Source: Centroscyllium fabricii (lineage: Eukaryota). From it: a stretch of 64,000 bases of DNA. How positions within the stretch are numbered: the stretch's first letter is position 1; each line of letters opens with the position of its first letter. Under the pieces are notes generated by a model. That model ran no database searches and was not told where the DNA came from. It saw only the letters and a list, made by a program, of their open reading frames with translations. Positions 7,322-64,000 of the stretch are shown here, in pieces. The stretch lies in assembly GCA_051313645.2 (NCBI GenBank), contig JBNRSN020000003.1, forward strand, positions 370,450,001-370,514,000. The letters are read 5' to 3'. A program made the position numbers and the translations under genes.

Positions 7322-7716
7322 AGAAACATAGAAGATAGGAGCAGGAGTAGGCCATTCGGCCCTTCGAGCCTGCTCCGCCATTCAATGAGATCATGGCTGA
7401 TCATCCAAACCCAGCACCCTGTCCCTGCCTTGTCCCCATATCCCTCGATCCCTATCGAGCCTGCACCGACACATCCCACCCTATCCCCGTAACCCCACAT
7501 ATTCAATCCCCCTAACACTAAGGGTCAATTTATCATGGCCAATCAACCTAACCCGCATATCTTTCGACTGTGGGAGTAAACCGGAGCACCCGGAGGAAAC
7601 CCACGCAGACACAGGGAGAATGTGCAAACTCCACACAGATAGTACCCGAGGCTGGATTTGAACCCAGGTCTCCAGTGCTGTGAGGCAACAGTGCTAACCA
7701 CTATGCCACCGTGCCG
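7322..7716 (-). mobile_element. HE1-like V-SINE (tRNA head, V-domain, CR1 tail)
   Basis: On -: GCGGCACGGTGGCATAGTGGTTAGCAC..GTGTGGAGTTTGCACATTCTCC..GGGTTTCCTCCGGGTGCTCCGGTTT; tail shared with CR1; near-identical to 56162-56553. Confidence 0.85.
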
Positions 7717-18479: not shown

Positions 18480-20000
18480 TGGCCCAGAAATTCCGGTGGC
18501 CCAGAAATTCCGGTCGCCCCGGGTGAGTCCACGCTGGGTACTCACCCGTAGGCCCATCCGAAGTGCCAGTTTCATGCATGCGCGCAAAACCGGCACTTCC
18601 GATCGATCCCCTGACAGAAGGGGTCAGGGGTCGGTACGCGTGTGCGTGTGCGGCAGCGCGTGGGCAATGCACTTCCGATTTTCTTTACAGGTCTGTGTGT
18701 GGGTAAGTATGGAGAAAGATACGGCTGCTTTTTTCATGCGCAAAGACCCCTTTTCAGAAGGTAAGTGGTGAATTAATTCAATTTAAAAAAAAAAATTCCA
18801 CAGATTTTTAAGTTTTAAATACTTTAAAGAAAGGTAAGTTTATTTTTAGCCCTGTAATGCCCTAGTTTCACTGGAGGCTAAGTATGCCAAGTATCCCAAG
18901 AATCGTCCAGAATTGAAATCTTGGCGATTCTTGGTGATTCTGCATGAAATGCGAAAAATACTTGGTTGAATCTTGGCGATTCTTGGTGAATTCTTGGCGA
19001 TTCTGGACAAGGTTACGAATCTATCACGAATTATTTTACGAATGAGGTACGAATCACTCACGAATCCACCACGAATTGCAAGAATTAATTAAGAATCCAC
19101 TACGAACTCCACGAATTAGTTACGAATTCTACGAATTAGCTACGAATTATCTACGAATGGCATTCGTAGTGCATTCGTAGTGCATTCGTGGACATTCGTG
19201 GACAATCGTGGTGCATTCGTGGTGCATTCGTGGTGCATTCTTGATTTTGAAAAAATGAAGAATGCCCAAGAATAGTCAAGAATGCACCACGAATCCACTA
19301 CGAATCAGTTACGAACGGTAAGAAAGGGTCACGAACGGTAAGAATGGGTCACGAATTGTTTACGAATCTATCACGAATTGAAAATTCGTGAACCCTCCTA
19401 CGAATTTTTTTGACAAACAAAAACTTTCCTTAAAAGTAAAAGAACTCCCGCGAACTACCGCGAACTCTACGATTGCGCTACGAATCCACTACGAATCTAC
19501 TACGAATCCACTACGAATTGCAAGAATGACCCACGAATCGGCCAAATTTAAAAATCGGCACGATTCGGGAATTCGTAGCCTCCAGTGAAACTAGGGCATA
19601 AAAAAACTTTCATTATTTTTTTCAAATTTTTTAATTTTTGTTTAAAACAGCTAATTTATGTCATTGATAGTTATTTTAAAAAATATGTTTTTTAAAAAAA
19701 TTATTTGAAAATTTACTGAGGTTTTGGGGCTTGTAGTATTCATAAATTTGACAGCTCTTCCTGTCAAACTTATGAATGGAGCATTCTGTGCTCCAATTGG
19801 CTCCCCGTGGCCCACGTGATCCCGCGCAATATCTCGCACTAACTGCGCCGCTCGGATACGGGAGCGCGGCGTGCCGGCACTTCAGGAAGGCCCCGCATCG
19901 GAATGCCATGCGGTGGCACAGCTCAGCGGCCGGCGCAGTAGGTAAGTGTAGGTTGGAGGCTTACACTCGCGGGAAGCCTGCAACCTGAATTTCTGGGCCA
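18480..20000 (-). mobile_element. Family X TIR element copy 2 (duplicated terminal 17-mer; nested Harbinger MITE)
   Basis: TGGCCCAGAAATTCCGG twice at 18480-18513; AATTTCTGGGCCA at 19988-20000; TTAT on both flanks. Confidence 0.8.
18858..19598. mobile_element. PIF/Harbinger MITE filled with ACGAAT/AAGAAT motif arrays
   Basis: Perfect 23-bp TIR TGCCCTAGTTTCACTGGAGGCTA; TSD TAA (18855-57, 19599-601). Confidence 0.9.
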
Positions 20001-26090: not shown

Positions 26091-27616
26091 TTTAATTATT
26101 AACAAAAAACAAATTTTCACTTTTGGTGGGGGTGGAAAACTGGCAAAACGCATCGGCCGCTCATTTATTCGCCTTGCACGATTGCCCTTTAAGGCCATAT
26201 GACGGGCTGCCCATCAGCTTCTGCCAGTTTCCTGCCCTCACACAAAGTGAGAATTAATCCTTCACCGCGCTGCGGTTTACACTTGATAAATGGTAACCTG
26301 CAGGAGGTACCGACTCAACATGCACGAAGGAAAAGACCCGGATTGCGAGTCTCCTTCAGTGAGCCATTCCAAACTAGGGCAAAACATTTGCACTGAACGA
26401 TTTAAAATTTGACTTTGGAAGTGCAACACTGCCTCCTGGTGACCAAAAATTGTACTACCTGATTAAATATTCCAGATTTTATGCATCAGAAGTAAAAGTG
26501 ATTTTGCCCCATATAGTACTCTCGAGTGAGAGTGGAAATGTTGTTGCATTCCTTCTTTTCAGGCAGATTCAAGTGACCTGCAGCCCTGGAGTCTGCGACC
26601 TTCTAATCAGAACAGAAACCTGCTTTAGCTTCGCCCCTCTGGAATTCTCTTTGTAACTTCTCCTCCCAGCTTTAACAGGCTCCTTCAAAGCCTATCTTTG
26701 CAACTGAGCTTTCAGTCTGCCCTCTGACCTCTTCTGCTACTTGGTGTTTGTCTATTCTCTGCTGTGTGGAGGCCTTAAAGACTCCAGAAAAATGACACTT
26801 TTTTGTCGCTCGAGACCGCTTCTTGTTCATAATGAGATGAACGGTGAAGACCCAAAACCATGGCGCAAGATGCCTTTAAGAAGACAAGAGTCAAGGAGAA
26901 CACACAGTAAATTCATAAGTGGAGCTTAGGTGACCCCAAGATTGGGCTTTGGAAGCTTTTAAGTTTGAGCAGCAAGGAAAGACTAAGGGAGGGAAGGAGT
27001 TACATGGTTGTGGTATCGTGGGAAAGAATACATGCACTTTTATTTAGTTTAGGGAACATTTTAATTAGGTAGATTCCAATTTTTGTTTTAATTGTTCATG
27101 GGATGTAAAGAGACTGGCAAAGCCACATTTATTGCCCTGTGGGAGGCTACGGTCTCCCGCGTAAAGAAAGTCAACACAGCGAGCTACAAGAAATAGGTCT
27201 TTACTCCAACTCCCACAATACAGTACTGAATTCGTAAAGCCCGCGAACCTGTGATGACTCACGGGTTGGTCACCTGCTGGAACCTGATTGGCTTTCCTTC
27301 TCTCAGGAGCAGGCAAGTCTGAACATGCCTTATTCCGCTCAGCTTGCAACTGCCTTGCTTGGGGAGGGGAATACAGCAGTTAAAAGGGGATTATACAGGT
27401 TTATCTCCGTACACACAGTGCTTCCCCAATGTGGCAACGCCACATCCCATCCTTCGTTGCCCTGAGAAAGTTAACCACCGCAGTCCTTGTAGTGATGGTG
27501 CTCCTACAATTGTGTTCGATAGGGAATTGCCGGATACTGCCCCAGTGAAGATGAATGGATGCCGATATTTGTCCAAATCGGGGTGCTGTGTGTGGACTGG
27601 GAGGAAATCACAGTGA

Positions 27617-29245
27617 CCGGGCAGGGGATGGCGATGGGGAAATGCGAGTACTCGTCAATGACGTTTAAAAAGTACACGTTTCGGTTGGACGAGGGGAGGG
27701 GCCCTTTAAAATCGACGCTGAGTCGCTCAAAGGGGCGGGTGGCCTTGATCAGGTGTGTCTGGTCCGGCCGAAAGAAGTGCGGCTTGCACTCTGCACAGAC
27801 TCGGCAGTTCTTGGTCATGGTCTTGACCTCCTCAATGGAGTAGGGGAGGTTGTGGGACTTAATGAAATGGACCAACCTGCTGACTCCCGGGTGGCAGAGG
27901 TCGTTGTGCAGGGTCTGGAGACGGTCCACTTGTGCGCTGGCACATGTACCGCGGGACAGGGCATCTGGGGGTTCGTTGAATTTCCCGGGCCGGTACAAGA
28001 TATCATAATTGAAAGCAGAGAGCTCAATTCTCCACCTCAATATCTTGTCATTCTTGATTTTACCCCACTCTTGGTTGTTGAACATGAACGCGTCTGAGCG
28101 TTGGTCAGTCAGCAGGGTAAATTGTTTGCCGGCCAGGTAGTGCTTCCAGTGTCGCACTGCTTCAACAATGGCCTGGGCCTCCTTCTCAACGGAAGAGTGT
28201 CGGGTCTCGGGGCCCTGGAGGGTGCGCGAGAAGAAGGCCACGGGTCTGCCCGCCTGGTTAAGGGTGGCGGCCAGGGCAAAGTCGGACGCATCGTTCTCTA
28301 CCTGGAACGGAATGGACTCGTCCACAGCATGCATCGTGGCCTTTGCAATATCCTGTTTTATGCCGCAGAAGGCCGTGCGGGCCTCTGCCGACAGGGGAAA
28401 GGAGGTTGATTTGAGTAGTGGGCGGGCTTTGTCTGCGTAATTGGGGACCCACTGGGCATAATAAGAAAAGAACCCCAGGCACCTTTTCAGGGCCTTGAGG
28501 GAGTGGGGGAAGGGGAGCTCCAGGAGGGGGTGCATGCGGTCTGGGTCGGGACCGATGACCCCATTCTCCACAACACTGCCGAGGATGGCGAGGCGGGTTG
28601 TCCTGAACACACATTTTTCCGTGTTATAGGTCAGGTTCAGATTTTTGGCGGTGTGGAGAAATTTCTGGAGGTTGGTGTCGTGGTCCTGCTGGTCGTGGCC
28701 GCAGATGGTCACATTATCAAGATACGGAAAGGTGGCCCGCAGTCTGTACTGATCAACCATTCGGTCCATCTCCCTTTGGAAGACCGAGACCCCGTTGGTG
28801 ACACCAAACGGAACCCTGAGGAAGTGATAGAGGTGGCCGTCTCCCTCGAAAGCAGTATAGTGGCGGTCCTCTGAGCGGATTGGGACCTGGTGGTACGCAG
28901 ACTTCAGATCGATGGTCGAGAAGACCCGATACTGGGCGATCTAGTTCACCATATCCGCTATGCGGGGGAGGGGATACGCATCTAGCTGCGTAAACCGGTT
29001 AATGGTCTGACTGTAGTCCACGACCATCCAGTGCTTGGCTCCGGTCTTCACAACTACTACCTGTGCCCTCCAGGGGCTATTACTGGCCTCGATGAACCCT
29101 TCCTTCAGGAGCCACTTCACCTCAGACTTGATGAAGTCCCTGTCCCCGGTACTGTGGCGCCTACCTTTGGTGGCGACGGGCTTGCAGTCCGGGGTGAGGT
29201 TGGCGAAGAGTGAGGGAGGGGCGACCTTAAGGGTCAAGAGACCGC
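27617..29245 (-). mobile_element. Ty3/Gypsy pol fragment (RT-RNaseH-integrase N-half), inverted relative to the rest of the element
   Basis: SPWRAQVVVV..VDYSQTIN..YPLPRI, YLDN, DASDFALAA, EKEAQA, HPG..CRVC, DFKGP. Confidence 0.9.
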
Positions 29246-34666: not shown

Positions 34667-37600
34667 TGTAGCGGACCGCCGGCTGGCGAATCCGCCTCGG
34701 GAGTACTGCGGGGCATAGCCCCGCCCACCGGGTGACGCAATGACGTCACCATGTCTCTCGGCGTGATGAGGTCAGAGGCGAGCGGGCAGTTTAAAAGAGC
34801 CTGCTCCTCGTGGCTCACTCTCTTTCTCATGTAGTACTGTTCAATAAAGTAGTGTTAACTGTCTATCTCCGGCTCCTGCATGGTCCTTGGGTCCTGTAAG
34901 CGCTACAGTGGTGACCCCGTCTTGGAACGTCTTCCAAGAAGAAAACAGCAGCTCAACAGGACTTAAGCCAAGCAGCCTCAGGACAATTAAAAAAAAACAC
35001 AACCAGCAACAATGTCTACCAGAAACCAGCCTTCCCGTCAGCAAGGACATGGCCAGAACCCCGGGCACCGACTAACTTTACCGGAGTTCTGGGAGCAACG
35101 CCCGGCAGCGTGGTTTATGTGCATTGAGACCAGCTGCCGCACCCATGGCATCCAGGGGGACGACCGCTACGACCTAGTCTTCTCGGCCCTACTGCAGTCG
35201 ACGATCGACCGGATGTGGTCGAAGCTACAGCGCGCGCCCGCAACAGGCAGGTACGACTTCATTAAGGCCGCGCTACTTAAAAAATTCACCCCCACCCAGT
35301 TCGAGCGCGACTGCCAACTCCTCAACCTCCCCGAACTCGGGGACGCAGACCCATCTGACCTTTGGGGCCAGATGCAAGCGCTGACCACGGACCCCGCCTC
35401 CCTGTTCCACGCCATTTTCCTCCTTAAGCTGCCCCCCTCCATCAACCTTCAGCAACCGGAGCGGGGACAAGCTAGCCGAGGAAGCCGACAGGCTCATGGC
35501 GGCCGAGCGCACCCGCTCCGCCACGTGCGACCTCACCGCCGCGGCAGTCGAGCCCGCCCACTCGCCCCCCAGGTCCAAGCCCACGCCTGAACCCAGGCCC
35601 CCGCGCCCTCCCAAACAACCGCGTGCCGCGAGCACCGGTTGGCGCTACTACCACGCGCGGTTCGGCACCAAAGCGCACCGCTGCGTCCTGCCCTGCACGT
35701 TCAAGCCACAGCCCAGCCCAGCCCCCACCATGTCCGTAGGCCACACCGGAGCCCTGCTCTACGTCACGGACAGGGGCACGGGTCTCCGGTTTCTCTGCGA
35801 CACAGGCGCACAACACAGCATCGTGCCAGCCTCCCCCGCAGAAGCCAAAAAAGGTACCCGGGGCCCGCCCCTCGCGGCGGCCAATGGCTCCGACATTAAA
35901 ACATACGGGACCCGCAGGCTAACCATCCAGCTTGCTGGCCACACGTATGAATGGGAGTTCGTCACAGCCCAGGTCACGTCACCCCTCCTCGGGGCAGACT
36001 TCCTGTGCGCACACGGCCTCCTGGTCGACATGACCCGGCGCCGCCTGGTCGACATCAAAAATATGTCGCCCATCCCATGCTCCACGGGGCCGGCACTCCT
36101 GGCCCACGCGGCGGCACGATGCCGCGCCCGGAACTCCGACGCGTACAGTGCGCTCCTCTCAGAGTTCCCAGCACTGACCAACCCCACCTTTACCGCCCGA
36201 ACGGCCAAACACGGGGTGGAACATTTCATTCTCAACACCGGCCCTCCTGTACACGCCCACGCCCGCAGGCTGGACCTGGCCAAGCTGGAGATTGCGCGCG
36301 CTGAGTTCGGCACCATGGAGCAACTCGGCATAATCTGCCGCTCCAGCAGCCCCTGGGCCTCTCCCCTCCACATCGCCCCCAAGCCGGGCGGGGGTTGGCG
36401 CCCCTGCGGAGACTACCGCTGCCTCAATAACGCCACTACCCCGGATAGGTACCCCGTACCCCACATCCAGGATTTCTCCGCCAGACTAGCGGGCTGCACG
36501 GTCTTCTCCAAGATCGACCTGGTACGTGGCTACCACCAGGTCCCGGTGCACCCGGCGGATGTCCCTAAGACAGCCGTGATAACCCCCTTTGGCCTGTTCG
36601 AGTTCCTGAGGATGCCCTTTGGGCTCAAAAACGCGGCCCAGGCCTTCCAGCGCCTAATGGACTCAGTCCTACGGGACTTGCAGTTCATCTTCGTCTACCT
36701 AGACGACATCCTCATGGCCAGCACCTCCCCCCCAGGAGCACCTCCTGCATCTCAGGACCCTGTTCCAGCGCCTGGTCGAACACGGCCTTATATTAAGCCC
36801 CTCCAAATGCAAATTCGGCCTGGAAATCATAGACTTCCTGGGCCACCGCATTTCCAAAACCGGGGCCATACCCCTGCCCTCCAAAGTGCAGGCAATCCAG
36901 GAATTCCCCCGCCCGCACACCGTCAAGGGCCTGCAGGAGTTCCTCGGGATGGTTAATTTTTATAACCGCTTCATCCCAGGAGCAGCCGCTCTCATGGCTC
37001 CCCTATACCAGGCCACACGCGGGCAGTCCGGCAAAGCCGCTGTCGAGTGGACGGCCGACGCCGCCACCGCGTTCACCGCAACCAAGACCGCCCTAGCCAA
37101 CGCCACCCTCCTAGCCCATCCCAGGCCCAACGCCAGAGTGGCCCTCACCACTGACACCTCCGACCACGCTGTCGGGGCCGTTTTCGAACAGTGGGCGGAC
37201 AACTCTTGGCAGCCCCTGGCCTTTTTCATCCGGCACCTGCGGCCACCGGAGGTCAAGTACAGCGCCTTCGACAGGGAGCTCCTCGCTCTCTACCTCGCTG
37301 TGCGCCATTTTCGTTTCCTCCTGGAGGGCCGTCATTTCACAGCTTTCGTGGATCATAAGCCGCTGACGTTTGCGATGGCTAAGATCTCCGAACCCTGGTC
37401 AGCCAGGCAGCAGCGCCAGCTTGCAGCCGTGTCGGAATTCACTACCGACATCCAGCACATCTCCGGCCGCGACAACGTGGTCGCTGACTGCCTGTCACGT
37501 CCCACCATCAACGCCGCCCAAATGGCGGTGGATTACGCCAAGCTGGCAGCAGACCAGCGGGCGGACCCAGACCTGCGCGCCCCGGCAGAAAACCTCCCGG

Positions 37601-39098
37601 GCCTACGCTTGGCCAACATCCCCCACGGCCCCGCGGCCACCGTAGTGTGCTGCGACGTCTCATTGCAGCAGCCCAGGCCCGTCGTCCCCCACGCATGGAG
37701 GCGGCGCATCTTTGAGACCCTCCATGGCCTGTCCCACCCCGGCACCCGCGCCTCCATCAAGCTCATTTCGGCCCGTTTTGTGTGGCGCGGCCTTCGTAAA
37801 GACGTCCGCGCCTGGACCAATGCCTGCATCGCTTGCCAGCGGGCCAAAGTGCATAAGCACGTCAAAGCCCCGCTGGAAACGTTTACCGTACCAGCCAGGC
37901 GCTTCAACCACGTCCACGTCGATCTCGTTGGACCGCTGCCGCCGTCCCGGGGCCACACCCATTTAATGACCATGGTGGATCGCAACACTCGCTGGCCAGA
38001 AGCAGTCCCTCTGGCCGCAACCAACACCACGGACTTAGCCAGGGCGTTCATCGCAACTTGGGTCGCCCGTTTCGGCGTGCCCACCGACATCACGTCGGAC
38101 AGAGGTCCCCAATTCACGTCCGCACTATGGGCGGCCATCGCCCGCAACCTCGGGGTGACCCTGCACAAAACCACCGCGTACCACCCACAGGCGAAGGGGC
38201 TGTGCGAAAGGTTCCACCGCTCCATGAAAGCCTCCCTGCGGGCCAGCCTGGAAGACGCATCGTGGACAGACCGCCTACCGTGGGTACTGCTCGGACTCCG
38301 CTCGGTGGCCAAAGAGGACTTGCATGCCTCAGCAGCGGAACTCGTCTACGGCCAGACATTAAGAGTGCCGGGCGAGTTTCTCGCCGAATCAAACGCCACC
38401 TGGTCGGCCGACCAGTTCCTCAAAGACTTTGCCAACCCGGCACGAGCTTTCACCCCCTTACCGGTGACCCGGCACGGGGAGCCGGTGGCACATGTACCGG
38501 ACAACATCCAGCAAGCCAAGTACGTGTTCGTCCACCATGACGCTCATCGCACACCTCTACGGCCACCCTACGACGGCCCTTATAGAGTGCTTCGGGTGGG
38601 ACCTAAAGCTTTCGATCTACAGCTGGGCAACCGAACGGAAACGGTATCAATCGACCGGCTGAAACCGCTGCACATGATAGCGGGCGACGCGACGGTCCCC
38701 GCCCAACCACCTCAACGCGGACGCCCTCCCGCACCACCACCCGCCCACACTCCACCGCAGCACCAGGAGCAATGCACGACCCGTGCCAGCCGCACCATAA
38801 GGCCACCACGACGCCTCGTGTAGACTTTTTCCCTCGGACGGATTCTGGGGGGAGCTGTGTAGCGGACCGCCGGCTGGCGAATCCGCCTCGGGAGTACTGC
38901 GGGGCATAGCCCCGCCCACCGGGTGACGCGATGACGTCACCATGTCTCTCGGCGTGATGAGGTCAGAGGCGAGCGGGCAATTTAAAAGAGCCTGCTCCTC
39001 GTGGCTCACTCTCTTTCTCATGTAGTACTGTTCAATAAAGTGATGTTAACTGTCTCTCTCCGGCTCCTGCGTGGTCCTTGTGTCCTGTAAGCGCTACA
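34667..39098 (+). mobile_element. Complete Ty3/Gypsy provirus, CsRn1-like clade (gag-pro-RT-RH-IN with two frameshifts)
   Basis: 241-bp LTRs 34667-34907 and 38858-39098 (TG..CA, about 7 mismatches by eye); TSD TTAC; PBS TGGTGACCCCG complementary to the tRNA-Trp 3' end; PPT; gag YHARFG..C..PC; protease DTGA; YLDD; HHCC, DDE and GPY integrase. Confidence 0.95.
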
Positions 39099-40439: not shown

Positions 40440-43400
40440 GACCCAGTAACCAGGGGGGGAGGTTTCAAGAGAGAAAATAACGACAGGGGAGAAGGAAATA
40501 GAGCAGGGTTTCAGTGGGGAATCTGAAAATCGAAGTGTGTAGGAGGACACAGAATGTATGAAGATAAAGGTATAGTCGTAAAAGGGGCAAAAACAGGAAT
40601 AAAGTGTAGTAAAACACATGTGAAAGTGCTTTATTTGAATGCACGTAGTATTCGTAATAAGATAGATGAATTGACGGTACAATTAAGCACGTATAGGTAT
40701 GATATTGTGGCCATTACAGAAACATGGCTGCAAGGTGATCAGGACTGGGAGTTAAACATAGAGGGTTACTTGACCATCAGAAAAGACAGACAGGAAAGAA
40801 AAGGAGGTGGGGTGGCCTTGTTAATAAAGGATGGAATAACTTAAAATGCAGCCAAGAGAGTTTTTTGAAGCAATATGTTGGGTCACCTACAAGGGGGGGG
40901 GGCGGTACTAGACCTAATACTTGGGAACGAAGACGGGCAGATAGAGGAGGTAACAGTGGGGGAGCACTTCGGGGATAGCGACCACAATTCAGTTAGTTTC
41001 AAGATTGTAATGGAGAAGGATAAAAATGGACCAGGGGTAAAAGTACTAAACTGGGGGAAGGCGGATTTCATTAAAATTAGGCGCGATGTAGCCGCAGTAG
41101 ACTGGGGCCATCTTCTCAGAGGAAGATCTGCATCAGAGCAGTGGGAGGCCTTCAGAGGGAAGGTCGGGAAGATACAGGAGGAACATGTTCCTGCTAAAAT
41201 CAAGGGCGGGGGAGGTAAACAAAGGGAATCTTGGATGTCTAGGGATATATGTAAATTAATGAAGAAAAAAAGGGGGGCCTTCAATGAATATAAACGGCTA
41301 AAAACCGAGGAGGCGCTAGGGGAGTATAAGAAGTATAGGGGGGAATTAAAGAAGGAGATAAGAAAAGCCAAGAGGGGTCATGAGATTGCAATGGCCGGCA
41401 AAATCAAGGATAACCCTAAGGCATTTTCCAGTTATATAAAAAACAAAAGGATCACGAGGGAAAGAGTGGGGCCCATTAAGGACGATAGCGGAAAGCTGTG
41501 CGTTGAGCCCGAGGCGGTGGGGGAGGTACTAAACGAATTTTTCTCTTCAGTATTCACAAGAGAGAGGGACGGAACCGACATCGTAATCGGACAGAGTGTA
41601 GGGGGGGTAATTGAGGATATTACCATTACAAGGGAAGAAGTACTAGAAATCTTGGGAAGCTTAAAGGTAGACAAATCACCAGGGCCGGACGCGATGTTCC
41701 CCAGGCTGCTGTTCGAGGCCAGGGAAGAGCTTGCGGGCCCCCTGTCTCAAATTTTCAGGTCCTCTCTCGCGTCAGGGGATGTACCCGAGGACTGGAGAAC
41801 GGCTAATGTAGTACCCCTGTTTAAAAAGGGTAGTAGGGACAAACCGGGTAACTATAGGCCAATCAGTCTTACATCTGTAGTGGGGAAAGTAATGGAAAAA
41901 ATTCTGAGGGACAAAATCAGTCTGCATTTGGAAAAGCAGGGTCTGATAAGGGATAGTCAACATGGCTTCGTCAAAGGTAAGTCGTGCCTAACTAATCTCT
42001 TGGAATTTTTTGAAGAGGTAACAAAGAGGGTGGATGAAGGGAGTACGGTTGACGTGGTGTATATGGACTTCAGCAAGGCTTTTGATAAAGTCCCACATAG
42101 GAGACTAATAACAAAGGTTAAAGCACATGGGATACAGGGCAACTTGGCACAGTGGATTCAAAATTGGCTGGGGGATAGGAGACAAAGGGTAATGGTAGAG
42201 GGCTGCTTCTGTGACTGGAAACCAGTAACCAGCGGTGTCCCCCAAGGATCGGTTTTGGGACCCTTACTGTTTCTAGTATACATCAATGATTTGGACATGG
42301 GAGTAGTGGGTACGATCAGCAAATTTGCTGATGATACGAAAATTGGAAGGGTGGTAAATAACGATGAAGATAGTAAAAGGCTCCAGGAAGATATAAATGT
42401 AATGGTTAGTTGGGCAGAAAAATGGCAAATGGAGTTCAACCCAGAGAAATGCGAGGTCATACAATTCGGCAGACCAAATGGGGTAAGGGAATATACCATG
42501 AACAAAAAAACGTTAGGTAGGACCGAGGAACAGAGGGACCTTGGGGTACAGGTGCACAGCTCCCTGAAGGTTGCTGGACACGTAAACAAGGTGGTTAAGA
42601 AGGCATACGGAATTCTGGCCTTTATTAACCAGGGCATAGTATACAAAAGTAGGGAGGTAATGTTAAACTTGTATAACACGCTGGTGAGACCTCAGCTGGA
42701 GTACTGTGTGCAGTTCTGGTCACCGCACTTCAGGAAGGATGTGGTTGCCCTGGAGAGGGTGCAGAGAAGGTTTACCAGGATGATACCTGGTCTGGGGGAC
42801 TTATGCTACGAGGAAAGGCTGGACAGGCTGGGGTTGTTTGCCTTGGAGAAGAGAAGATTGAGGGGTGACATGATCGAGGTATACAGGATCATGAGAGGAC
42901 ACGATAGGGTGGATAAAGGGGCATTGTTTCCCTTGGTGGGAGAGTCAAGTACTAGGGGACATAGATTCAAGATTAGGGGGGGGAGGTTTAGGGGGGAGGT
43001 AAGGAGAAATTTCTTTACTCAGAGGGTGGTGGAAGTGTGGAACTCCCTGCCTGTAAGGGTGGTGGAGGCAGAAACCATCGCAACATTTAAAAAATATTTG
43101 GACCAGCACATGAAGGACCGTAACATACAGGGTTATGGGCCAGGTGCGGGCAAATGGGGTTAGTATAGTGAGGAGTTTCCTGGGCCGGTGCGGACTGGAT
43201 GGGCCGAATGGCCTTTATCCGCACTGTAAAGTTTCTATGATTCTATGATTCTATGAACTGCAATAGAAAGGAAGGATATTGGGTCAAAGGATCAGGATAG
43301 TGAAACAGCTTGGGTACAGATAGAGAATAATAAGGGGAAAAAAACACTAGTGGGTGTAATCTATAGACCTCCAAATAGCTGTGACTCTGTTGGTCAAAAC

Positions 43401-46814: not shown

Positions 46815-47033
46815 AATGTTCTGTTCATGCCCAACGTATTGGAATACCTGACATGTAACGATGAAGAAGACGATCTCCAGAAGATTCTAATGATCCCTGC
46901 GTCTCAGAAGATGAGGCTAAATGGTTACCGGGCAGTTGCCTGTAACACCACCACCGAAGTGCGGAAGGAGCATTTTCAGGAACTCGCCGATGAACTTAAA
47001 AGCCAAGTGGACATCCAGAAAATTGTGGACAAG
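46815..47033 (+). CDS. ABCA2: ABCA2 coding exon (extracellular domain 1), phase 0-0, 219 nt
   Basis: ctag| ... |gtgatc; LEYLTC..LQKILMIPASQKMRLNGYRAVAC..LKSQVDIQKI resembles human ABCA2 LEQLTC..LGRILTVPESQKGALQGYRDAVC..LRNQLDVAKV; in phase with the next exon. Confidence 0.85.
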
Positions 47034-47479
47034 GTGATCTGATCTTGGAGAAAAAAATCAACATTTTATTTTTACTTTGTAGAACCCTCCTGCTCATTCT
47101 AATGATTTCCCAGTGTGGGAGAGCTGGGCCTCTTGATACGTGCCTTTCCACCTCATCATTCCATGTTGGTTGTTCTCATCCTTCAGATGAGTCCCAACTA
47201 ATCAAACTTGCACAACTGGGGGAAGATGCATTTGGTTGTCATCAAGGTGTCTGGCTCCAGCATGAGAGGTCAGGAAGCTCTGATGTATTGACAGATGCTC
47301 ATACCGAATTTACTTAGCGTGATGTCGCATAACCGCAGTGTCCCCGAATCACTTGCTATATAACTGAACGAAGGATGGCACCATGGAAGGGGTGGGGTGA
47401 TTTTCCTAGGTTGCACTGCCAGTGGGAAGACTCGTCCGCCAGCTGTGCATGTTGGGAAGTACATTGTGCCATAAATCAC

Positions 47480-49961: not shown

Positions 49962-50278
49962 CTCAAGTTGAATGAGGTGAACAGCACAGCCGTACAGCAT
50001 CACCTTCAGGCCTTGCTGGAAGACCTCATTGAGGTGGAAAAGATTCTGAAAGATGTGGATGCCTTATCAGGACTTGCCCGACTGCTCCCAAAGGGGGCCT
50101 GTGTGGGCAAAAGCCCACCCGCCGCTGCCAATAGTACCAGCTGGAGCGGCAACTTCACTGCTGCCAATGCCACCTCGGAGGAGGAAGAGGAGCCCGAGAA
50201 GGAGAATCCTCACACCCAGTTTTCAGCCTTTGTCCAGCTCTGGGCTGGCCTTCAGCCAATCCTCTGTGGGAATAACAG
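49962..50278 (+). CDS. ABCA2: ABCA2 coding exon, phase 0-2, 317 nt
   Basis: Polypyrimidine-cag| ... |gtaaaa; LQALLEDL..KILKDVDALSGLARLLPKGAC and SAFVQLWAGLQPILCGNNR are characteristic of ABCA2. Confidence 0.95.
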
Positions 50279-51782: not shown

Positions 51783-54700
51783 GGGGGCGATTTTCACCAG
51801 ATACTTTTGGTGCTAATGAGCCTCTGAGGTGGCCAAGGTGGGGTCTAAAGTAGCAAAGCTGGTGTAGCCAGCGTTTAGCGCAAGACGCCATCTTGGTAAA
51901 GGAGTTGAAGTGCGCACTAGGAACAGCAATCCGGAGGATCATTAAGGGGCCAATTGACAATTAAATTGCCTGCTAGCGCTCATTAAAGATTCTGCATGCC
52001 ATATCGGTAAGTAGCACTTCAAATAACAACCTCTCCCAGCAGCGACCAGCTGAACAGGTGTAAACAAGTCGTTGCTGAGGATTTTGAGTGCTTCTTAAAG
52101 CCACGCTCAGCTTTCACTGTTCACTTGCTGCTGGAGATCGACTGGCTGCACTGCGTTTGAAGAGGACTTTTGAGACACATCGGGAGACTTTCTGGGACAT
52201 TTTGTCAAGACTTCACCAACACACTCTCAGCATTTTTCCAAGTATTTTTTTTAGGACTTCAACTAAAAAGCGTGAGTGCTGAGCTACTCCACCTTATTGG
52301 ACACCTTATAGGAGTCACGAGGAGAAAGGGAGTGCTTGGTCATGGGCACCTTGCTAGGGGTCCCCCGAGGAATAGGCGGAGGAGATTGAGGCCAGGCAGA
52401 GCAGCAGCAACTGCTGTAGCAGTGACAGAGAGTAGGGGCAGGGGGGAAGGAAGGCTGTCAGCAGGAGGTCCTGTCCACCCAAGGTATTCAGAGAGCACGA
52501 CTCCTACATTCACATGACCCAACACCAGTGCACGAGGAGGCTGCTCTTTACTAAGGAGGTCATCTCAGAGTTCTGTGGCCTCGTGGAATGAAGACTCGGA
52601 CCTCACAGCACAGCCAGGATTGCATTGCCTGTGGCAGTCAAGGCCACCAGAGCACTTAATTTTTATGCGACTGGAACCTTTTAACTTGCTGGCACAGGTG
52701 ATATCAGGCACATATCACAATCCTCTGAGCACTTCTGGATAAGAGAGGACTCTGAGGCTCTTTACACTCTGAGCAATGACCCTATTGCCAAAGAAGACCA
52801 GAGACAGAGAGCTCCAGGATTTGACAGGATTGCGGGATTCCCCATGGTCCAGGGAGCCATTGGCTGTACACATGTGGCCATGCGAGCACCTCATTTAAAC
52901 TCGGAGGTATTCAGGTAGAGGAAAGGATACCATTCCCTCAATGTGCAGCTTGTCTGCGACCACCTGCAGCGCATCATGCAGGAGAATGCCTGCTATCCCG
53001 GGAACTACCATGATGCATCTACAATGAGACAGTCTTCTGTCCCAGAGATCTTTGAGCCCCAACGCAATGTGCATGGCTGGCTACTAGGTGACAAGGGATA
53101 CCCTCTGATGCCGTGGCTCATCACTCTCCTGAGAAACTCCTGGACACCAGCTGAGCACTCATACAATGAGAGCCACTCAGACACCAGGAATATCATTGAG
53201 CAGACTATTGGGGTCCTCGAGTAGCAGTTTAGATGTCAGGAGGTGCCCTGTAGTACTCTGCCGAGCAGGTGTCTACATTAGTGGTGATTGCCAATCCATG
53301 CAAGCTGTAGTGACTGTAGTGGAAGCTGCGACCTCGGTCACCAGACGCTGCAAGATGTCGGGCTCCGCAGTTCACTGGCTGACATTGCCCAGCCTCTCCA
53401 CGCTGGAGAGGATGGGTTCCAGACTCTGCGTCCATGCCACAAACCAAGGTGGAGAAGTACTCCTCCATCCCCCTAGACACTATCCAAAGGCTTTCAGGCA
53501 AGCTCTCCATTGCACCAAGCATTTGGTGGGTCGCACCGGTCCGACTTCTTCTGAGGCTGGTTCCTGCGAGATCCTCATTGACTCCTCTGCAGCAGAACTA
53601 GTATGCGACCTTACCCCAGGAACGGTGGCCCCTGTGGTGTCCCTTCCACCCAGCGTGGCTGGTGCCCGGTGTGTTCCACTGCGAGAATCACTTTTCTAAC
53701 CTGGCCTCGAAGTTACGTATGATGCCGGTCTCTGAGCCGGTGCCTGCGACTGTGGTCGCCGTTGACGCAGTGCATTCTTCTTCCCTACTCTCCTCCTCCT
53801 CCTCTTCCTCCAGTGGCGCGAGGTAGCTGTTGCTCAACTTGCATTTGCTCCAGGGGGGGCCAGGTGGATCTTGCACCTGGAAGCCTGCAGTGATGATGCT
53901 GGAAGGGTTAGCGTGCAGTGCACGTGGCCACTATAGGAAGATGGGTGTGATGAGACCATATGGAGCTTGGGAATGAGGATAGCTTTAGGGGAAATTAGGG
54001 ATCAGGAATAGTTGTGCATCTGTAAGGAAGCTGGAGTGGCCACATACCTCTAGGTGATATACCCCTTGCTCTGCCTTTGACCACAGCATCTCCCACTCTC
54101 CTCCCGATCATCACAACCAACACTGCCTCCTCAAGGGGAGTGATATCATGCAGTCGTGGTTGTCCTCTCTGGGTCAGGTCCTGCTGCCACCTGTTATGTG
54201 CTACTTTTTCCTGGAAGAGAAAGTTGGGTGATTGTGAATTGAGTGTAGGGACAGGTGTGTGTGATGCCTCACATGGTTGAAGACCTGCGAGATGTGTCTG
54301 AGGTGTGAGTAGTGCCTGTGAAGGATGCGATAGTGTGGGGTGTGTGAATGTCAGTGTATAGTTAGATGGTGGATGAAGTGTGTTGAGGTTGTGGTGGTGC
54401 AGTTATTGAGAATTGTGCTCGTGAGATGGGATCTTACTTTGATTATTCGTGTCAAATCATTAAATTTCTTGTGGCACTGGCACCATGTCCTGGGGCGATT
54501 TCGTCCCATGTGCGCCACATTAGTGGCCTCTGCGGCCTCCTCCCCTCCTGCGGGTAGAGGACATCGTTCCTCCTCTCTACCTCCCCTACTCGGACCTTCA
54601 GTACCACATCGGAGAGCCTGTGCCCCCTCGCTTGCTCCTTGTGACTTCCAGCCGTTACACTCCACACCTTCAGTGGAAGTGGGTGAGAGGAGCACACATA

Positions 54701-57645: not shown

Positions 57646-57805
57646 AACGATTGAGCCTGAGGCATTGAAGCAGGGAAACATGAGCTCGCTGGGCTTCACC
57701 AGCAAGGAGCAACGCAACCTCGGACTACTGGTGCACCTCATGACCACTAATCCCAAAATCCTTTATTCGCCAGTCGGAACAGAGGTGGACAAAGTCATAG
57801 AAAAG
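57646..57805 (+). CDS. ABCA2: ABCA2 coding exon, phase 2-0, 160 nt
   Basis: tccag| ... |gtcaga; [42 protein letters not shown] is nearly identical to human ABCA2 as I recall it. Confidence 0.97.
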
Positions 57806-57973
57806 GTCAGAGCCCAGCAAAGCCACCAACTACAGCTTCATGAAACCAAACCCCCCCCCCCATGTCTTGCATCTATTCTAAGTTCTCTCAGTTGGCAGAA
57901 AGAATGGTTCAAACTGTATACTTGGCCGTAACTGGTGCACTGTGCTCGAGGAGTGCCAATCATAAATACTTAT

Positions 57974-58100
57974 GTAAGAAGTCACACAACACCAGGTTAT
58001 AGTCCAACAGTTTTATTTGAAATCACAAGCTTTTGGAGCGCTGCTCCTTCGTCAGGTGAATTGAAGAGATGCACATAGGCACAGCATATATAGTCAGAGA
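57974..58100 (-). mobile_element. Penelope-like terminus with degenerate minimal hammerhead
   Basis: On -: TCAC-CTGACGA-AGGAGC-AGC-GCTCC-AAAA-GCTT-GTGA (core GAAA mutated). Confidence 0.65.
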
Positions 58101-58347
58101 ACACTGCTAGATGATTGCAGGTTATTTTTCTCACTGCCCTTTATCACACCTTGGCAGAAAGATAATCACAGCACTCAAAGGTGTGAATGGTGTCCAAACA
58201 GGTCAGTCAGGAAAACATTACATCAAAGAACAGTGAGGTGGGGTCACAAGAGGTCAAATGTTGCAGTGCTGGGGTCGGCATGAAAAACATGGCTTCTAGT
58301 TTGTTTTTTGTTTTTCATTATAAATGTGCTGCATGTTGAACATGCGA

Positions 58348-59829
58348 CTCCCCCACCGCCTCGGGCTCGACGCACAGCTTTCTGCTATCGTCCTCAATGG
58401 GCCCCACTCTTTCCCTCGTGATCCTTTTGTTTTTTATATAACTGTAAAATGCCTTAGGGTTATCCTTGATTTTGCCGGCCATTGCAATCTCGTGACCCCT
58501 CTTGGCTTTTCTTATCTCCTTCTTTAATTCCCCCCTATACTTCTTATACTCCCCTAGCGCCTCCTCAGTTTTTAGCCGTTTATATTCATTGAAGGCCCCC
58601 CTTTTTTTCTTCTTTAATTTACATATATCCCTAGACATCCAAGGTTCCCTTTGTTTACCTCCCCCGCCCTTGATTTTTGCAGGAACATGTTCCTCCTGTA
58701 TCTTCCCGACCTTCCCTCTGAAGGCCTCCCACTGCTCTGATGCAGATCTTCCTCTGAGAAGATGGCCCCAGTCTACTGCGGCTACATCGCGCCTGATTTT
58801 AATGAAATCCGCCTTCCCCCAGTTTAGTACTTTTACCCCTGGTCCATTTTTATCCTTCTCTATTACAATCTTGAAACTAACTGAATTGTGGTCGCTATCC
58901 CCGAAGTGCTCCCCCACTGTTACCTCCTCTATCTGCCCGTCTTCGTTCCCAAGTATTAGGTCTAGTACCGCCCCCCCCCCCTTGTAGGTGACCCAACATA
59001 TTGCTTCAAAAAACTCTCCTGGCTGCATTTTAAGAATGCTGAACCTTCCGTGCCCCTCACACTCTGACAATCCCAGTTGATGTTGGGGAAATTAAAGTCC
59101 CCTAATATTATTACTTTGTTATTTTCGCTTATCTTCGTGATTTGCTCACATATCTTACCCTCCATCTCCCCATTACTGTTTGGTGGTCTATAATATACTC
59201 CCAGTAAGGTGCCCCCCCCCTTTTTATTTTTTACCTCCACCCATAGTGCCTCGTTTGAGGAATCATCCATTAGGTCGACCCGCCTGATGGCTGTGATTGA
59301 ATCCTTAATCAGTATCGCTACCCCCCCTCCCCTTTTTCCCTCGTCTCTGTCCCGCCTGAAAATTCTATACCCCGGAATATTTAGCTGCCATTCCTGCCCC
59401 TCCTTCAGCCACGTCTCCGTGATAGCTACTATATCATATTCCCATGTGTCAACCAATACCTTTAACTCATCCACCTTGTTAGTCAGACTCCTTGCGTTAA
59501 AATATATACCTTTCATTCTCTGACCTAATACTACCTTGTTTTGCTGTCTAGTCTGCTTTCCTTTATTAGGTTGTATTCCCCTACCCTTTATGCCTTCACT
59601 CTGGGTCCCCTCCCCCTGCCAATTTAGTTTAAACCCACCCCAACCCGACTATCAAACCTTCCCGCAAGGATATTGGTCCCATTCCGGTTCAGGTGCAACC
59701 CGTCCGGCATGTACAGGTTCCACTTACCCCAGAAGCAAGACCAATTGTCCAAAAAGCTGAACCCCTCCTTCCTACACCAACTTTTTAGCCACGAATTAAG
59801 CTGCTCTATCTTACGGTTCCTATACTCGA
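58348..59829 (-). mobile_element. CR1 subfamily B 5' portion (ORF1 esterase C-terminus plus ORF2 endonuclease)
   Basis: DGLHLNRNGTNILA (SGNH-type ORF1); YFNARSL..ITETWL..GDFN; 58348-59032 almost identical to the reverse complement of 40842-41525. Confidence 0.92.
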
Positions 59830-61360
59830 TATATCCAAGGATTCTCTGGGAAGCGAGGAACGAAATCGCAGAGCCACTGACCTCTATCTTTAGTTCCTCG
59901 CTATCCTCGGGGATAGTCCCTGAGGACTGGAGAGAGGCGAATGTGGTTCCCATATTTAAAAAGGGGAGCAGGGACGTGCCAGGGAACTACAGACCAGTCA
60001 GCCTTACCTCGGTGGTCGGAAAGGTGATGGAAATGGTCCTGAGGGACAGGATCTACAACCATCTAGAAAGGGGCAAATTAATCAGGAGCAGTCAGCACGG
60101 ATTCGTTAAGGGCAAATCGTGCCTGACCAACCTGATAGAATTCTTTGAAGAGGTGACCAAGTGTGTAGACGAGGGAAAGGCAGTTGATGTCATATATATG
60201 GACTTCAGCAAGGCGTTCGACAAGGTCCCGCACGGTCGACTCATGAAGAAAGTAAGGAGTTGCGGGGTAAACAACGAAGTGGTGGGATGGATTGAGAACT
60301 GGCTGGCTCAGAGGAAGCAGAGGGTAGTGGTAGAGGGCCAATACTCGGGTTGGAGACCGGTCACCAGTGGGGTACCACAGGGGTCGGTGTTGGGGCCACT
60401 ACTATTTGTAATCTTTATCAATGACTTGGAGGAGGGGACTGAGGGGTGGGTCAGCAAATTTGCGGATGACACAAAGATCGGGGGAGTAGTGGATGAGGAG
60501 GAAGGAAGTAGCAAGATTCAGAGGGATATAGATAGGATGCAGAGCTGGGCTGAAGAATGGCAAATGGAGTTCAACACGGGGAAATGCGAGGTGATGCACT
60601 TCGGTAGGGCAAATAGGAAGAGGGAATATAGGGTCAACGGCAGGGTCCTGAGTGAAGCAGAGGAACAAAGGGATCTGGGAGTATATGTACACAGATCATT
60701 GAAGGCTGCCACCCAGGTGGACAAGGCAGTAAAGAAGGCCTATGGTGTATTGGCCTTCATCAACAGGGGAATAGAGTTTATGAACCGGGAGGTCATGCTA
60801 CAGCTGTACAGGTCACTGGTGAGACCACACTTGGAGTACTGTATGCAGTTCTGGGCACCGTACTACAGGAGGGATGTGGAGGCGCTGGAGAGGGTGCAGA
60901 GGAGATTCACCAGATGCTGCCGGGAATGGGGGGAAAGTCGTACGAGGAGAGTTTGAGGGAGCTGGGACTCTTCTCCCTGGAATGGAGAAGGAAGAGGGGG
61001 GACTTAATAGAGATGTTTAAAATGATGAAGGGGATCGATAGAGTAAACGTGCAGAGACTGTTTCCCCGGGTGGGAAGAACGATAACAAGAGGGCACGAGC
61101 ACGAGCACAAGATTCAAGGAAGAAGATTCAGAAGTGATGGCAGGGGTAAGTTCTTTACGCAGAGAGTGGTCGGGGAATGGAATAGGCTACCATCTGAAAT
61201 AGTGGATGTGGACAGTCTGGGTGCTTTTAAAAGGATGATAGATAGGTACATGGAGGGGAAGGAAGAGTAGGGGGGACAGAAAAAAATCAGAGACGGACTA
61301 AGCGCGGCACTACATTGAGGGCCCAAGGGCCTGTACAGTGCTGTATGTTCTATGTTCTAT
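59830..61360 (+). mobile_element. CR1 subfamily C 3' portion (RT to tail)
   Basis: IYPRILWEARNEIAEPL..FADDTK..; (TATGTTC)n tail. Confidence 0.92.
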
Positions 61361-62500
61361 AGAAAGGAACTTTTTCCCTTAGTAGAGGGGTCAATAACCA
61401 GGGGGCATAGTTTCAAGGTAAGGGGCAGGAGGTTTAGTGGGGATCTAAGGAAGAACTTTTTCACCCAGAGGGTGTTTGGAAAATGGAACTCACTGCCTGA
61501 AAGGGTGGTAGAGGCAGGAACCCTCACAACATTCAAGAAGCATTTGGATGAGCACTTGAGATGCCATAGCATAAAAGGCTACGGACCAAGTGCAGAAAAA
61601 TGGGATTAGAATAGACAGGGCTTGATGGCTGGCGTGGACACGATGGGCCGAAGGGCCTCTTTCTGTGCTGTATTACTCTATGACTCTAAGAGCAGGGAAG
61701 ATCTCCCTGGTGTCCTGGCCAATATCTATCCCTCAATCAACATCACTAAAACAGATTGTCTGATCATTATCTTGTTGCAGTTTGTGGGACCGGACTACAC
61801 AAATTGACGACCGCATTTCCTACATTACAACAGCAACTACAATTCAAAAGTACTTAATTGGCAGTAAAGGGGTTTGGGACGTCACGAGGATGTGAAAGGT
61901 GCTATATACATAAGAACATAAGAAATAGGAGCAGGAGTAGGCCAATCGGCCCCTCGAGCCTGCTCTGCCACCCAACAAGATCATGGCTGATCTGATCCTA
62001 ACCTCAAATCTATTTTCACTCTCCATCCCCCCCAAACCCATGTGATCACCCGGGAGAGGCGAAAAAACAGATAAAAAACTCAGTGGCCAATTTGGGAGAA
62101 AAAATCTGGGAAATTCCTCTCCGACCCATCTAGACGATCGAAAACTGGTCCAGGAGATCACATGGCCGAGCTGAACCTAGCCTCATGTCCACTTACCTGC
62201 CCACTCACCATAACCCCTAATTCCCTTTATTTCCAGGAAACTGTCTATCTCTGTTTTAAATTTATTCAATGTAGTAGCTTCCACAGCTCTCTGGGGCAGC
62301 AAATTCCACAGCCCCACCACCCTCTGAGTGAAGAAGTTTCTCCTCATCTCAGTTTTGAAATGGCAGCCCCTTATTTTAAGATTATGCCCCCTAGTCCTAG
62401 TTTCACCCACCATTGGGAACATCATCACCGCATCCACCCGATCAAGCCCTCTCACAATCTTATATGTTTCAATAAGATCGCCTCTCATTCTTCTGAACTA
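61361..62500. mobile_element. CR1 3' fragment (+, to ~61687), Deu-SINE tail (+) and nested CR1 3' fragment (-, 61909-62488) carrying the UTR module
   Basis: ORFs 61352-61609 and 62183-62488; SINE tail GCTATATA|TATAAATGCA split by the insertion. Confidence 0.85.
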
Positions 62501-62769
62501 TAAATGCAACAGATACAGACATGAGGTGAGGAAATCCCCCAGTAGTGGAGCGCTAAGTTCCAAAGTCACCTTGCATGTCCAATCCATGCTACACTTAGCA
62601 CATCATTTCTCAAAGTGCTCATAATGCATCCCAAAATGTTATTTTCTGGAAGAAATCCAACTTAAATGATACAGTTTAAAAAAAATCAATGCATTGACAT
62701 TGGATATTAAAAAGTTATACCCTCCTTTGATAAAATAGCCTTGGATTCCACGCTCTGCGTTTCTCTTAT

Positions 62770-63640
62770 TCCTGGCTGACGGGCTGGAGGGTATTTTCTG
62801 CAGGATTTTCTGCCCTTCCTCCTGCAGCACTTTGTACAGGAGGCCTCGCTGGTTCCAGGGAACGTAGGACTTCACAACCAGCGACGCTTCGTCCAGCCGC
62901 AGGCGGTGATGTAGTCCAGGGCCGTGAGGTAGTGGTTCCCAGCCAGCATTCGCACCAGGCCCCGGCCGCACATGGCCTTGACGCAGCTCCCGGGGTGCGG
63001 CAGCTCGTGCTCCAAGATGGCCTGGAAGTCCTCGAGGGCCCGCGTGTGGTGGCCGGCGTGGAGGTGGCAGAAGCCGCACAGCACCAGGATGGTGTTGTGG
63101 TAGGTGGTCCGATCGGAAGTGAGCAGGCACTGGCACAGCAGGAGGGAGCCCCCGGCGTCGCCCGGCAGCAGCTTGCAGTTGGCCAGGCGGATCCGCAGGT
63201 CGCGTCGGGCCTCGGGCTCCATGTTGAGCACCAAGCCGAGCGCTTCCAGGACAGGCTGGAGGAGGTCGGCTCCGCCGTCAGATCTCAGCTCGGCAGCGCA
63301 CCACCTCCTTGTACTTGGCAAACTGGGCCTCGATGAACCGCTTGGCCTGATTGACCATGACGCCAGCGCTGAAGAACTGCTTGAAGTGTTTCCTAGCGAG
63401 ACCCGGGCAGCTCTTGAAGGCCGAGGCAAGGTCGTGAATCACCTCCCTCAGGCGGTTGCCCATGGCGAAGTGGGCGGCGGCCCGGCCAATGAGGAGCCAA
63501 GCCTTCTCCTCAGACTCGGGCTCGGCGGCCAGGCGCGCCAACAGCTCGAGCCCCGTGCTGCACTTTGCCGCACTTTCCGCAAACCGCCGCTCTCCCAGCA
63601 GGCGCATGGCGCACGCCCGATATGCGCTGATGTCGGGCTG
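62770..63640 (-). pseudogene. TTC34: TTC34-like TPR-protein coding fragment with two frameshifts, antisense within the ABCA2 intron
   Basis: Three overlapping frames join into a helical TPR-type protein: WLLIGRAAAHF..DLASAF.. / YHNTILVLCGFCHLHAG..ALEDFQAILEH..CVKAMCGRGLVRML..LTALDYIT / KSYVPWNQRGLL; gene name from recall, not from a search. Confidence 0.7.
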
Positions 63641-63754
63641 CCACTGATCGGCGCCAATCGCGGGACGAGCCGTCGGCGTGCATCCCTCAGTGCTATTGCC
63701 GGACCTGGCCACTGCGCAGGCACCGGGAGGCGCAACTCGGGTCATGTCCCGGTT

Positions 63755-63830
63755 GGGCAAGCGCGATTTTCTTTTGCTTGCCCGACGGCGCATTTTGCTT
63801 GCCCCGGGCAAGCGGTTTTGTCGCGCCCTG
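63755..63830 (-). mobile_element. Putative hAT-type transposon terminus
   Basis: Begins CAGGGCGCGACAAAA at 63830 on -; four subterminal GCTTGCCC/GGGCAAGC repeats in both orientations. Confidence 0.5.
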
Positions 63831-64000
63831 TTATTTTTAAAAATGAGATGTTTAAAAAATATATATTTTTAGGTTTATTGTGGTTTTGGGGCTGTGGTAT
63901 TCATAAGTTTGACAGGTCTTCCTGTCAAACTTATGAATGGAGCATTCTTTGCTCCGATTGGGTCCCCGCGGACCACGTGATCCCGCGGGAAACTTCGCAC
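63831..64000 (-). mobile_element. Family X TIR element copy 5 (partial, runs off the window)
   Basis: Matches ~19670-19840; perfect 18-bp palindrome arms at 63899-63938. Confidence 0.85.

Follow-up and report, generated by a model that had tools for sequence, protein, structure and literature searches.

A TTC34 exon fragment behind a hAT-like transposon end in a shark genome: probable relic of a multicopy Pack-type family

Plant Pack-MULE and Pack-TYPE elements transduplicate GC-rich gene fragments, which are later amplified. Has a transposon done the same with part of the gene TTC34 in a shark? Here, we focus on a 64,000-nucleotide stretch of DNA from Centroscyllium fabricii (the window), in which an initial annotation had noticed a frameshifted TTC34-like segment beside a transposon-like terminus and had proposed exon capture and multicopy amplification. 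The window copy is probably a dead, one-ended member of a multicopy, non-autonomous Pack-hAT family that carries a TTC34 exon; as in the plant elements, a GC-rich fragment would have been captured and then amplified, unlike them in an animal host. Related organisms were compared using contigs from four of 21 runs (X1, X2, X5 and X8), aligned to 62450–63900 at a likeness of at least 80%; X1 and X2 represent organism A and X8 represents organism C.

A genomic copy of part of a TTC34 exon

The TTC34-like identity of the fragment is confirmed by protein search and by tblastn. Its middle frame is 88% identical to TTC34 of the sawshark Pristiophorus japonicus (E 4e-69), and the tblastn match at 63637–62720 on the minus strand corresponds to amino acids 243–543 of the 1073 of sawshark TTC34, with 246 + 159 bits; 50 of 50 shuffled sequences scored at most 22.7 bits. 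When X is placed at the breaks, the exon piece is 80% identical to sawshark TTC34 over 308 alignment columns, 74% identical to TTC34 of Heptranchias and 54–73% identical to that of eleven other cartilaginous fish. A tree pairs the window copy with sawshark TTC34 at a support of 83/91, which is below the accepted support threshold, and gives the window copy an end branch of 0.19 versus 0.086 for the sawshark. Its closeness to sawshark makes a squalomorph the probable host. The sawshark protein (P0004) contains a tandem duplication of approximately 24 residues, at about amino acids 213–250, that is missing in other sharks; a shared duplication near amino acid 225 in the window copy was ruled out by alignment.

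The pseudogenised 3′ part of the TTC34 exon occupies 62720–63687 (minus strand), as delimited by tblastn, alignment and contigs of organisms A and C that cease to match near 63687. The boundary of TTC34 homology falls at about 63684–63688, where a high-copy terminal segment starts, and weak homology reaches about 63684 if a third frameshift (63634) is permitted. At 968 bp, with a GC content of 65% and an observed/expected CpG ratio of 0.80, the exon part agrees with the CpG-rich coding segment of about 0.9 kb that had been described. The same description spoke of a TPR coding segment, which holds as far as the TTC34 identity goes but not for the pieces themselves. Pfam was searched with 105 of the 135 long frames of the window and with the three TTC34 frame pieces; at E ≤ 0.001 these three pieces matched neither TPR nor any other family, and the TPR label therefore derives from the parent gene.

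The other limit of the exon part is a native exon boundary. Two skate genomic open reading frames (P0042 and P0143) cover amino acids 16–556 of skate TTC34 with at most nine gap residues and stop one residue past the K-E that closes the match of the window, where the window reads GG/GTATAA. From the extent of these frames, the native exon measures about 1.6 kb and ends at this GG/GTATAA; the donor at 62719 coincides with the single-exon ends in skate. The splice donor and the AT-rich DNA that follows it (62511–62719, minus strand) are taken to be where the next TTC34 intron begins, on the basis of the skate frame ends, contig collinearity and a GC content of 36% past the donor versus 65% in the exon part. 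A 1039-nt contig of organism C (X8 record 31) is collinear with the window from 63634 to 62634, 86 bases beyond the exon, and a contig of organism A spans 62521–62656 in the intron part. The cargo comprises the 3′ 60% of the large TTC34 coding exon, the splice donor and the start of the intron, at least 1.17 kb, and both tblastn and alignment find the first 210 or so codons of the exon and every other TTC34 exon missing from the 64-kb window.

No poly(A) was found next to the fragment, as had been reported. The accompanying observation that introns are absent is correct for the 968 coding bases but uninformative on its own, because the native exon is a single exon of about 1.6 kb. With its donor and intron DNA retained and no poly(A), the cargo is a copy of genomic DNA and not a retroduplicate, and its 968 bp of exon and about 200 bp after the donor lie within the 100–5000 bp of internal non-TE host sequence that a Pack-TIR carries. 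The intronic portion of the cargo includes a short repeat (62559–62660) for which organisms A and C both show depths in the thousands.

The element end and its insertion site

Next to the exon lies the terminal segment of a high-copy, hAT-like DNA transposon (63688–63830, minus strand), with CAGGG at 63830 and its outer end facing right, as recognised from contig ends, motifs and a related end in two metagenome contigs. It contains four GGGCAAG subterminal motifs in both orientations (63755+, 63783−, 63804− and 63806+). In organism A, 233 contigs of X1 and 235 of X2 match to exactly 63830 and then diverge, the flanks past this point (median 255 letters) agreeing at 0.33 and 0.32. The CAGGG end is a genuine mobile-element terminus, with the subterminal repeats ascribed to it at the outset; it does adjoin the exon, and the distance of about 120 bp first given becomes a segment of about 143 bp. 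Summed depth at 63675–63830, which is not a copy number, amounts to tens to hundreds of thousands in organism A and about a thousand or more in organism B, and is zero at 63724–63821 in organism C (X8, about 55 in 100 of the run covered). One organism-A contig (X2) returns from 63833 to 63684 with 34 letters between, which suggests tandem or nested terminal segments.

We take the CAGGG terminus to resemble the ends of fish hAT elements, and this resemblance, together with a five-letter motif, makes hAT the likely superfamily. The terminal motif of hAT elements is YARNG, to which CAGGG at 63830 conforms, and both this motif and a high copy number are shared with vertebrate non-autonomous hAT families in the portions of PMC3014272 drawn on here. 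The vertebrate hAT terminal inverted repeats (TIRs) in those portions match the 63830 end for the first five or six letters at most; uptake of extra DNA is described there for hobo_AC. A related CAGGG end with GGGCAAG motifs occurs beside two different flanks in the metagenome contigs L001 (1307–1518) and L002 (1–205). Their background is eukaryote-like, and in L002 the end follows a few telomere-like TTAGGG-type units. Pattern scans for an autonomous partner with a hAT DDE transposase led to these two short contigs (1.5 kb), which carry the end but not its interior and link no transposase to it; the same terminus pattern gave no match in viral contigs and 26 in bacterial contigs that score as chance.

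On its outer side the end abuts the right part of an interrupted family-X MITE (63831–64000, plus strand), which is 81–86% identical to three other copies and corresponds to nhmmer model positions 443–612. Family X is presumably Harbinger-like. The initial annotation had described the terminus as joined to a MITE arm; the junction falls instead at position 443 of a model of about 740 positions, within the MITE, and in four further copies of family X, whose inverted ends are GGCCCAGAAATT-like, the sequence continues upstream past it. The letters at 63831–63838 (plus strand; TTATTTTT) are the presumed right-hand copy of the 8-bp target-site duplication expected of hAT elements, the same letters following GATAG in three intact family-X copies; a left junction matching them was not found in the window. 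Another family-X copy (18497–19967) is split by an insert of about 745 bases (18856–19601), with an observed/expected CpG ratio of 1.49 in 19001–20000, and decayed Harbinger-type transposase pieces (Pfam DDE_Tnp_4) at 7546–8076 and 52919–53221 are possible partners of family X.

To the left, the plus strand carries three ABCA2 exons in the expected order, at about 46836–47036, 49962–50278 and 57646–57805, which are 76–95% identical to bamboo-shark ABCA2. The last of these, located by homology search, has a GT donor; the following exon was not found before 64000, and four queries detected none in 1–46800. The TTC34 fragment very likely lies antisense in an ABCA2 intron, as originally stated, provided that the gene continues past 64000.

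Since the outer end faces right, the interval from 57806 to 62510, on the left, is where the partner end and the left half of the MITE are expected. The initial annotation had called the second terminus not visible in the window; it should lie in this interval and not past the window edge, and it was not found there. Neither were the left 440 or so bases of the MITE, sought with nhmmer in 57806–63830. Across the whole window, a 15-mer with three mismatches gave one match, the known end, and no credible candidate emerged from motif lists, blastn-short or nhmmer; nine plus-strand CAGGG occurrences in 57808–62720 do not resemble the end. The candidate ACTTGCCCG at 50072 lies within an ABCA2 exon and was discarded as chance. 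A stack of LINE and SINE pieces (58348–62510, no strand assigned), identified by Pfam reverse transcriptase and endonuclease matches and by self-BLAST, cuts the cargo on the left. The Pack-TIR definition given in PMC8277862, cited here and below from part of the paper, calls for ends of the same element on both sides; the window copy has only the 63830 end. The second end is lost or unrecognisable, and the window copy is classed as a one-ended relic working like a Pack-TIR rather than as a complete one.

Shared deletions, related copies and decay

Two frameshifts, at about 63300 and 62895, had been reported initially; both are real, at 63287 and 62901, and a third had been missed. At the third (63634–63635, minus strand), 2 bases are missing relative to three contigs each of X1 and X2, and the upstream frame matches TTC34 only past the shift. 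Contig comparison shows 5 bases missing at 63287–63288 and 7 at 62901–62902 (both minus strand), each deletion being common to most organism-A copies. The intact form at 63287 accounts for 0 of a depth of 89.4 in X1, 16.8 of 181.6 in X2 and 23.6 of 23.6 in X8; the corresponding values at 62901 are 19.2 of 57.2, 28.4 of 85 and 23.6 of 23.6. As both deletions are common to most organism-A copies and occur beside the intact form, they are not assembly errors and predate the spread of the copies.

How many such copies exist can be gauged from 40 of 216 variant sites and 32 of 26,247 contig pieces, with contig counts that are raised by overlapping contig ends. At the listed sites in 62884–63514, organism A has up to seven (X1) or 11 (X2) contigs each, and at 63552 and 63572 it has 21–30. 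Organism B has three to five contigs at several sites. Organism C (X8) has one contig per site at the listed differing sites in 62793–63572, and it holds the 5 + 7 bases missing in the window. The exon–terminus join at 63687 is bridged in organism A by X2 record 14 (63505–63802; 38 changed letters and 18 gap letters) and X1 record 8 (63576–63748), each with more than 31 letters on either side; both are about 12–13% different from the window, and low-depth organism-A contigs in general are about 9–13% different. At many sites the letter of the window occurs in no organism-A contig, so that organism A represents a different species or does not contain this particular copy. Among the 32 of 26,247 pieces listed, no contig runs from cargo through terminus to flank.

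Several copies with the same chimeric join, the mark of a multicopy element, are present in organism A, as seen in the two bridging contigs listed and the shared deletions, and these data support a multicopy TTC34 cargo in this related organism, in many diverged pieces. Both proposals of the initial annotation, capture by a DNA transposon and amplification, are supported by the comparison: the terminus is real, the join recurs in other copies, diverged copies with the same deletions occur in organism A, and a single intact TTC34 contig occurs in organism C, which has no depth over the terminus. A Pack-TIR calls for a parent locus free of the TE, so as to exclude segmental duplication; a candidate for this locus in X1 and X2 is a 960-nt contig that departs from the window at 63687 and continues with 807 unlike letters.

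Two further features of the contigs were recorded. A second organism-C contig (X8 record 32) matches 62634–62783, the last 63 bases of the exon and the start of the intron, and is frameshifted by a 1-base insertion; with 1090 unlike letters upstream and no terminus, it is another partial TTC34 copy, unexplained by the capture model. At 63528–63600, in organism A only, the contigs peak at 21–30 with a depth of 500–1100, lower at 63514 and 63634; this is perhaps a higher-copy derivative that keeps only 70–100 exon bases.

At 34 of the 40 listed sites, most of organism A and organism C have another letter than the window, and 16 of these 34 are CpG transitions. Non-synonymous changes make up 23 of 32 coding changes (72%), compared with an expectation of 75% under random change and 65% when only CpG transitions are considered; drawn from the best-supported 40 of 216 variant sites, these figures are indicative. 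At the listed sites the copy is shown to decay without protein constraint, mainly via CpG loss, which is consistent with methylation. No match to fragment or fusion proteins was found among 34 candidates of 72–230 amino acids. Phmmer, run with a frame that includes terminus-derived residues, gave seven matches, all from query residue 54 or later; of the four inspected, three are TTC34-like and one is unrelated. The copy is most likely without function at present. The idea of the initial annotation that it could yield antisense or small RNAs against the parent gene finds no support; the decay resembles that of dead, methylated DNA.

Origin of the element and comparison with known systems

The join between genomic TTC34 DNA and a real element end lies 143 bp in from the terminus, and an account of how this came about can be proposed. 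The cargo would have entered where the element was broken internally, copied during template switching or gap repair, a route suggested because the cargo lies directly against the inner side of the end and the join carries no TIR. The routes of capture described in PMC8277862 are FoSTeST or gap filling. A founder then lost 5 + 7 bases and subsequently multiplied, an order that follows from the sharing of both deletions by most copies; this is seen in organism A and would extend to the present genome. Transposase acting in trans may have driven the amplification. The end sits at an AT-rich site in the family-X MITE of the ABCA2 intron, where the element would have arrived by transposition, and later LINE insertions or a deletion could have taken the other end together with the left half of the MITE.

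A different history, in which exon and terminus were joined once and the copies then arose through segmental or tandem duplication, or by riding along with another element, is unlikely. The join might have arisen when a duplicate TTC34 exon, or the DNA beside it, received an element insertion that was followed by an internal deletion. Such a history would suit a window with no second end or target duplication, the lack among listed contigs of any with cargo plus a different flank, and those organism-A contigs (records 1, 3 and 9) that have 4–7 times the depth of their neighbours and few differences, as near-identical recent duplicates would. However, the copy ends exactly at the terminal base and there meets the interior of an unrelated MITE in an ABCA2 intron, and the 64 kb hold no further TTC34 exon; a plain insertion would set the outer end of the TIR against the exon, which abuts the inside instead; and the divergence of the low-depth organism-A contigs means that many copies are old. 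One-off gap filling, whereby a resident element was broken, patched with TTC34 DNA and immobile afterwards, is the commonest route in animals and the one behind most single-copy Pack-TIRs (PMC8277862), but the 5- and 7-bp deletions and the join are common to many diverged organism-A copies, and gap filling mostly copies nearby DNA, of which the window holds no other TTC34 exon; we regard it as quite improbable.

Least credible of all, to much the same degree, are a true gene and an RNA intermediate. The initial annotation had itself raised a true TTC34 gene with frameshifts due to assembly error, and a gene or remnant nested in ABCA2 would account for the real exon end, donor and intron DNA and for the 93% DNA identity to the intact organism-C contig (72 changed letters in about 1000). 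It is rejected on the recurrence of two deletions in the independent runs X1 and X2 beside the intact form; the first 210 or so codons of the exon and all other exons are missing, the substitutions are neutral-like and the branch is long relative to that of the sawshark. As for a retrocopy or an RNA-templated patch from TTC34 mRNA, 968 coding bases without an intron would be expected of it, yet these bases belong to one native exon and are followed by the donor and intron DNA, not by the next exon, and by no poly(A); the retained donor and intron contradict spliced mRNA and leave unspliced pre-mRNA as the only possible template.

If the window copy is a relic of a Pack-hAT family, how does that family compare with published ones? 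Tan et al. 2021 (PMC8277862) report, in the parts cited here, 370 Pack-TIRs in 100 animal genomes, of which 208 are hAT, with a median cargo of 224 bp. Only four multicopy cases (1.4%) are given there among animal reference-genome Pack-TIRs, and the row for elephant shark, the only cartilaginous fish, has 0 Pack-TIRs. Multicopy Pack-TIRs are reported there to favour GC-rich DNA, with hAT acting as carrier more often than any other superfamily. Pack-hAT-N8_XT of Xenopus tropicalis, with 291 bp of CAPSL (PMC8277862), resembles the present element in that host gene DNA lies in a non-autonomous TIR element, with a hAT-like end, GC-rich cargo made up of an exon and flanking intron, several copies and a position in another gene's intron. 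It differs in having three loci, whereas contig counts here suggest more copies, in a shark lineage, and only one end survives here. Against the short median cargo of the published Pack-TIRs, the cargo here, in which 968 bases are coding, measures at least 1.17 kb. Ssk-FB4 of Drosophila melanogaster (PMC8277862) is likewise gene DNA, introns included, that a TIR element picked up and mobilised more than once; there, as far as the source is cited, the cargo is a nearly whole gene, young, expressed and translated, in contrast to the window copy, which holds part of one exon, bears three frameshifts and decays neutrally.

Capture and amplification form a known process that is seldom multicopy in animals, and the cargo here is larger and apparently more amplified than in published animal cases. 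That the transposon moved the exon to tens of loci, far above the few copies of published animal Pack-TIRs, is a tentative proposition, somewhat less probable than not. The wider proposal, that in one shark lineage a hAT family made the exon a kilobase interspersed repeat that occupies tens of loci and falls into deletion sub-families, and that silencing spreads from it to the parent TTC34 exon via small RNAs or double-stranded RNA, is a long shot. Were it true, silenced CpG-rich copies, including antisense ones in transcribed introns, would affect the parent TTC34; small-RNA cross-talk is reported for maize in the part cited of bioRxiv 10.1101/777037. A literature search, separate from Repbase and Dfam, found no title on a TTC34-bearing element, and the family may already be catalogued in repeat libraries. 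Coding cargo of a kilobase that shares founder deletions across many diverged copies would demonstrate plant-style capture and amplification in shark genomes, and such a family would be datable and usable to test how capture happens. Such copies can also mislead the annotation of TTC34 and exon-capture phylogenetics.

The surrounding DNA of the window is rich in LINE, LTR and Harbinger-type remains, as judged by Pfam. A LINE at 58321–61360 flips strand near 59900. The 687 bases at 58348–59034 are 98% identical, in inverted orientation, to 40840–41525, whereas similarity in the adjoining LINE parts is only about 69%; we interpret the pair as a recent conversion or local copy between LINEs 17 kb apart. 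A near-complete Gypsy-type LTR element at 34667–39098 has 241-bp LTRs that are 97% identical and long open frames for protease, reverse transcriptase, RNase H and integrase, and a second, older piece lies at 27507–28940.
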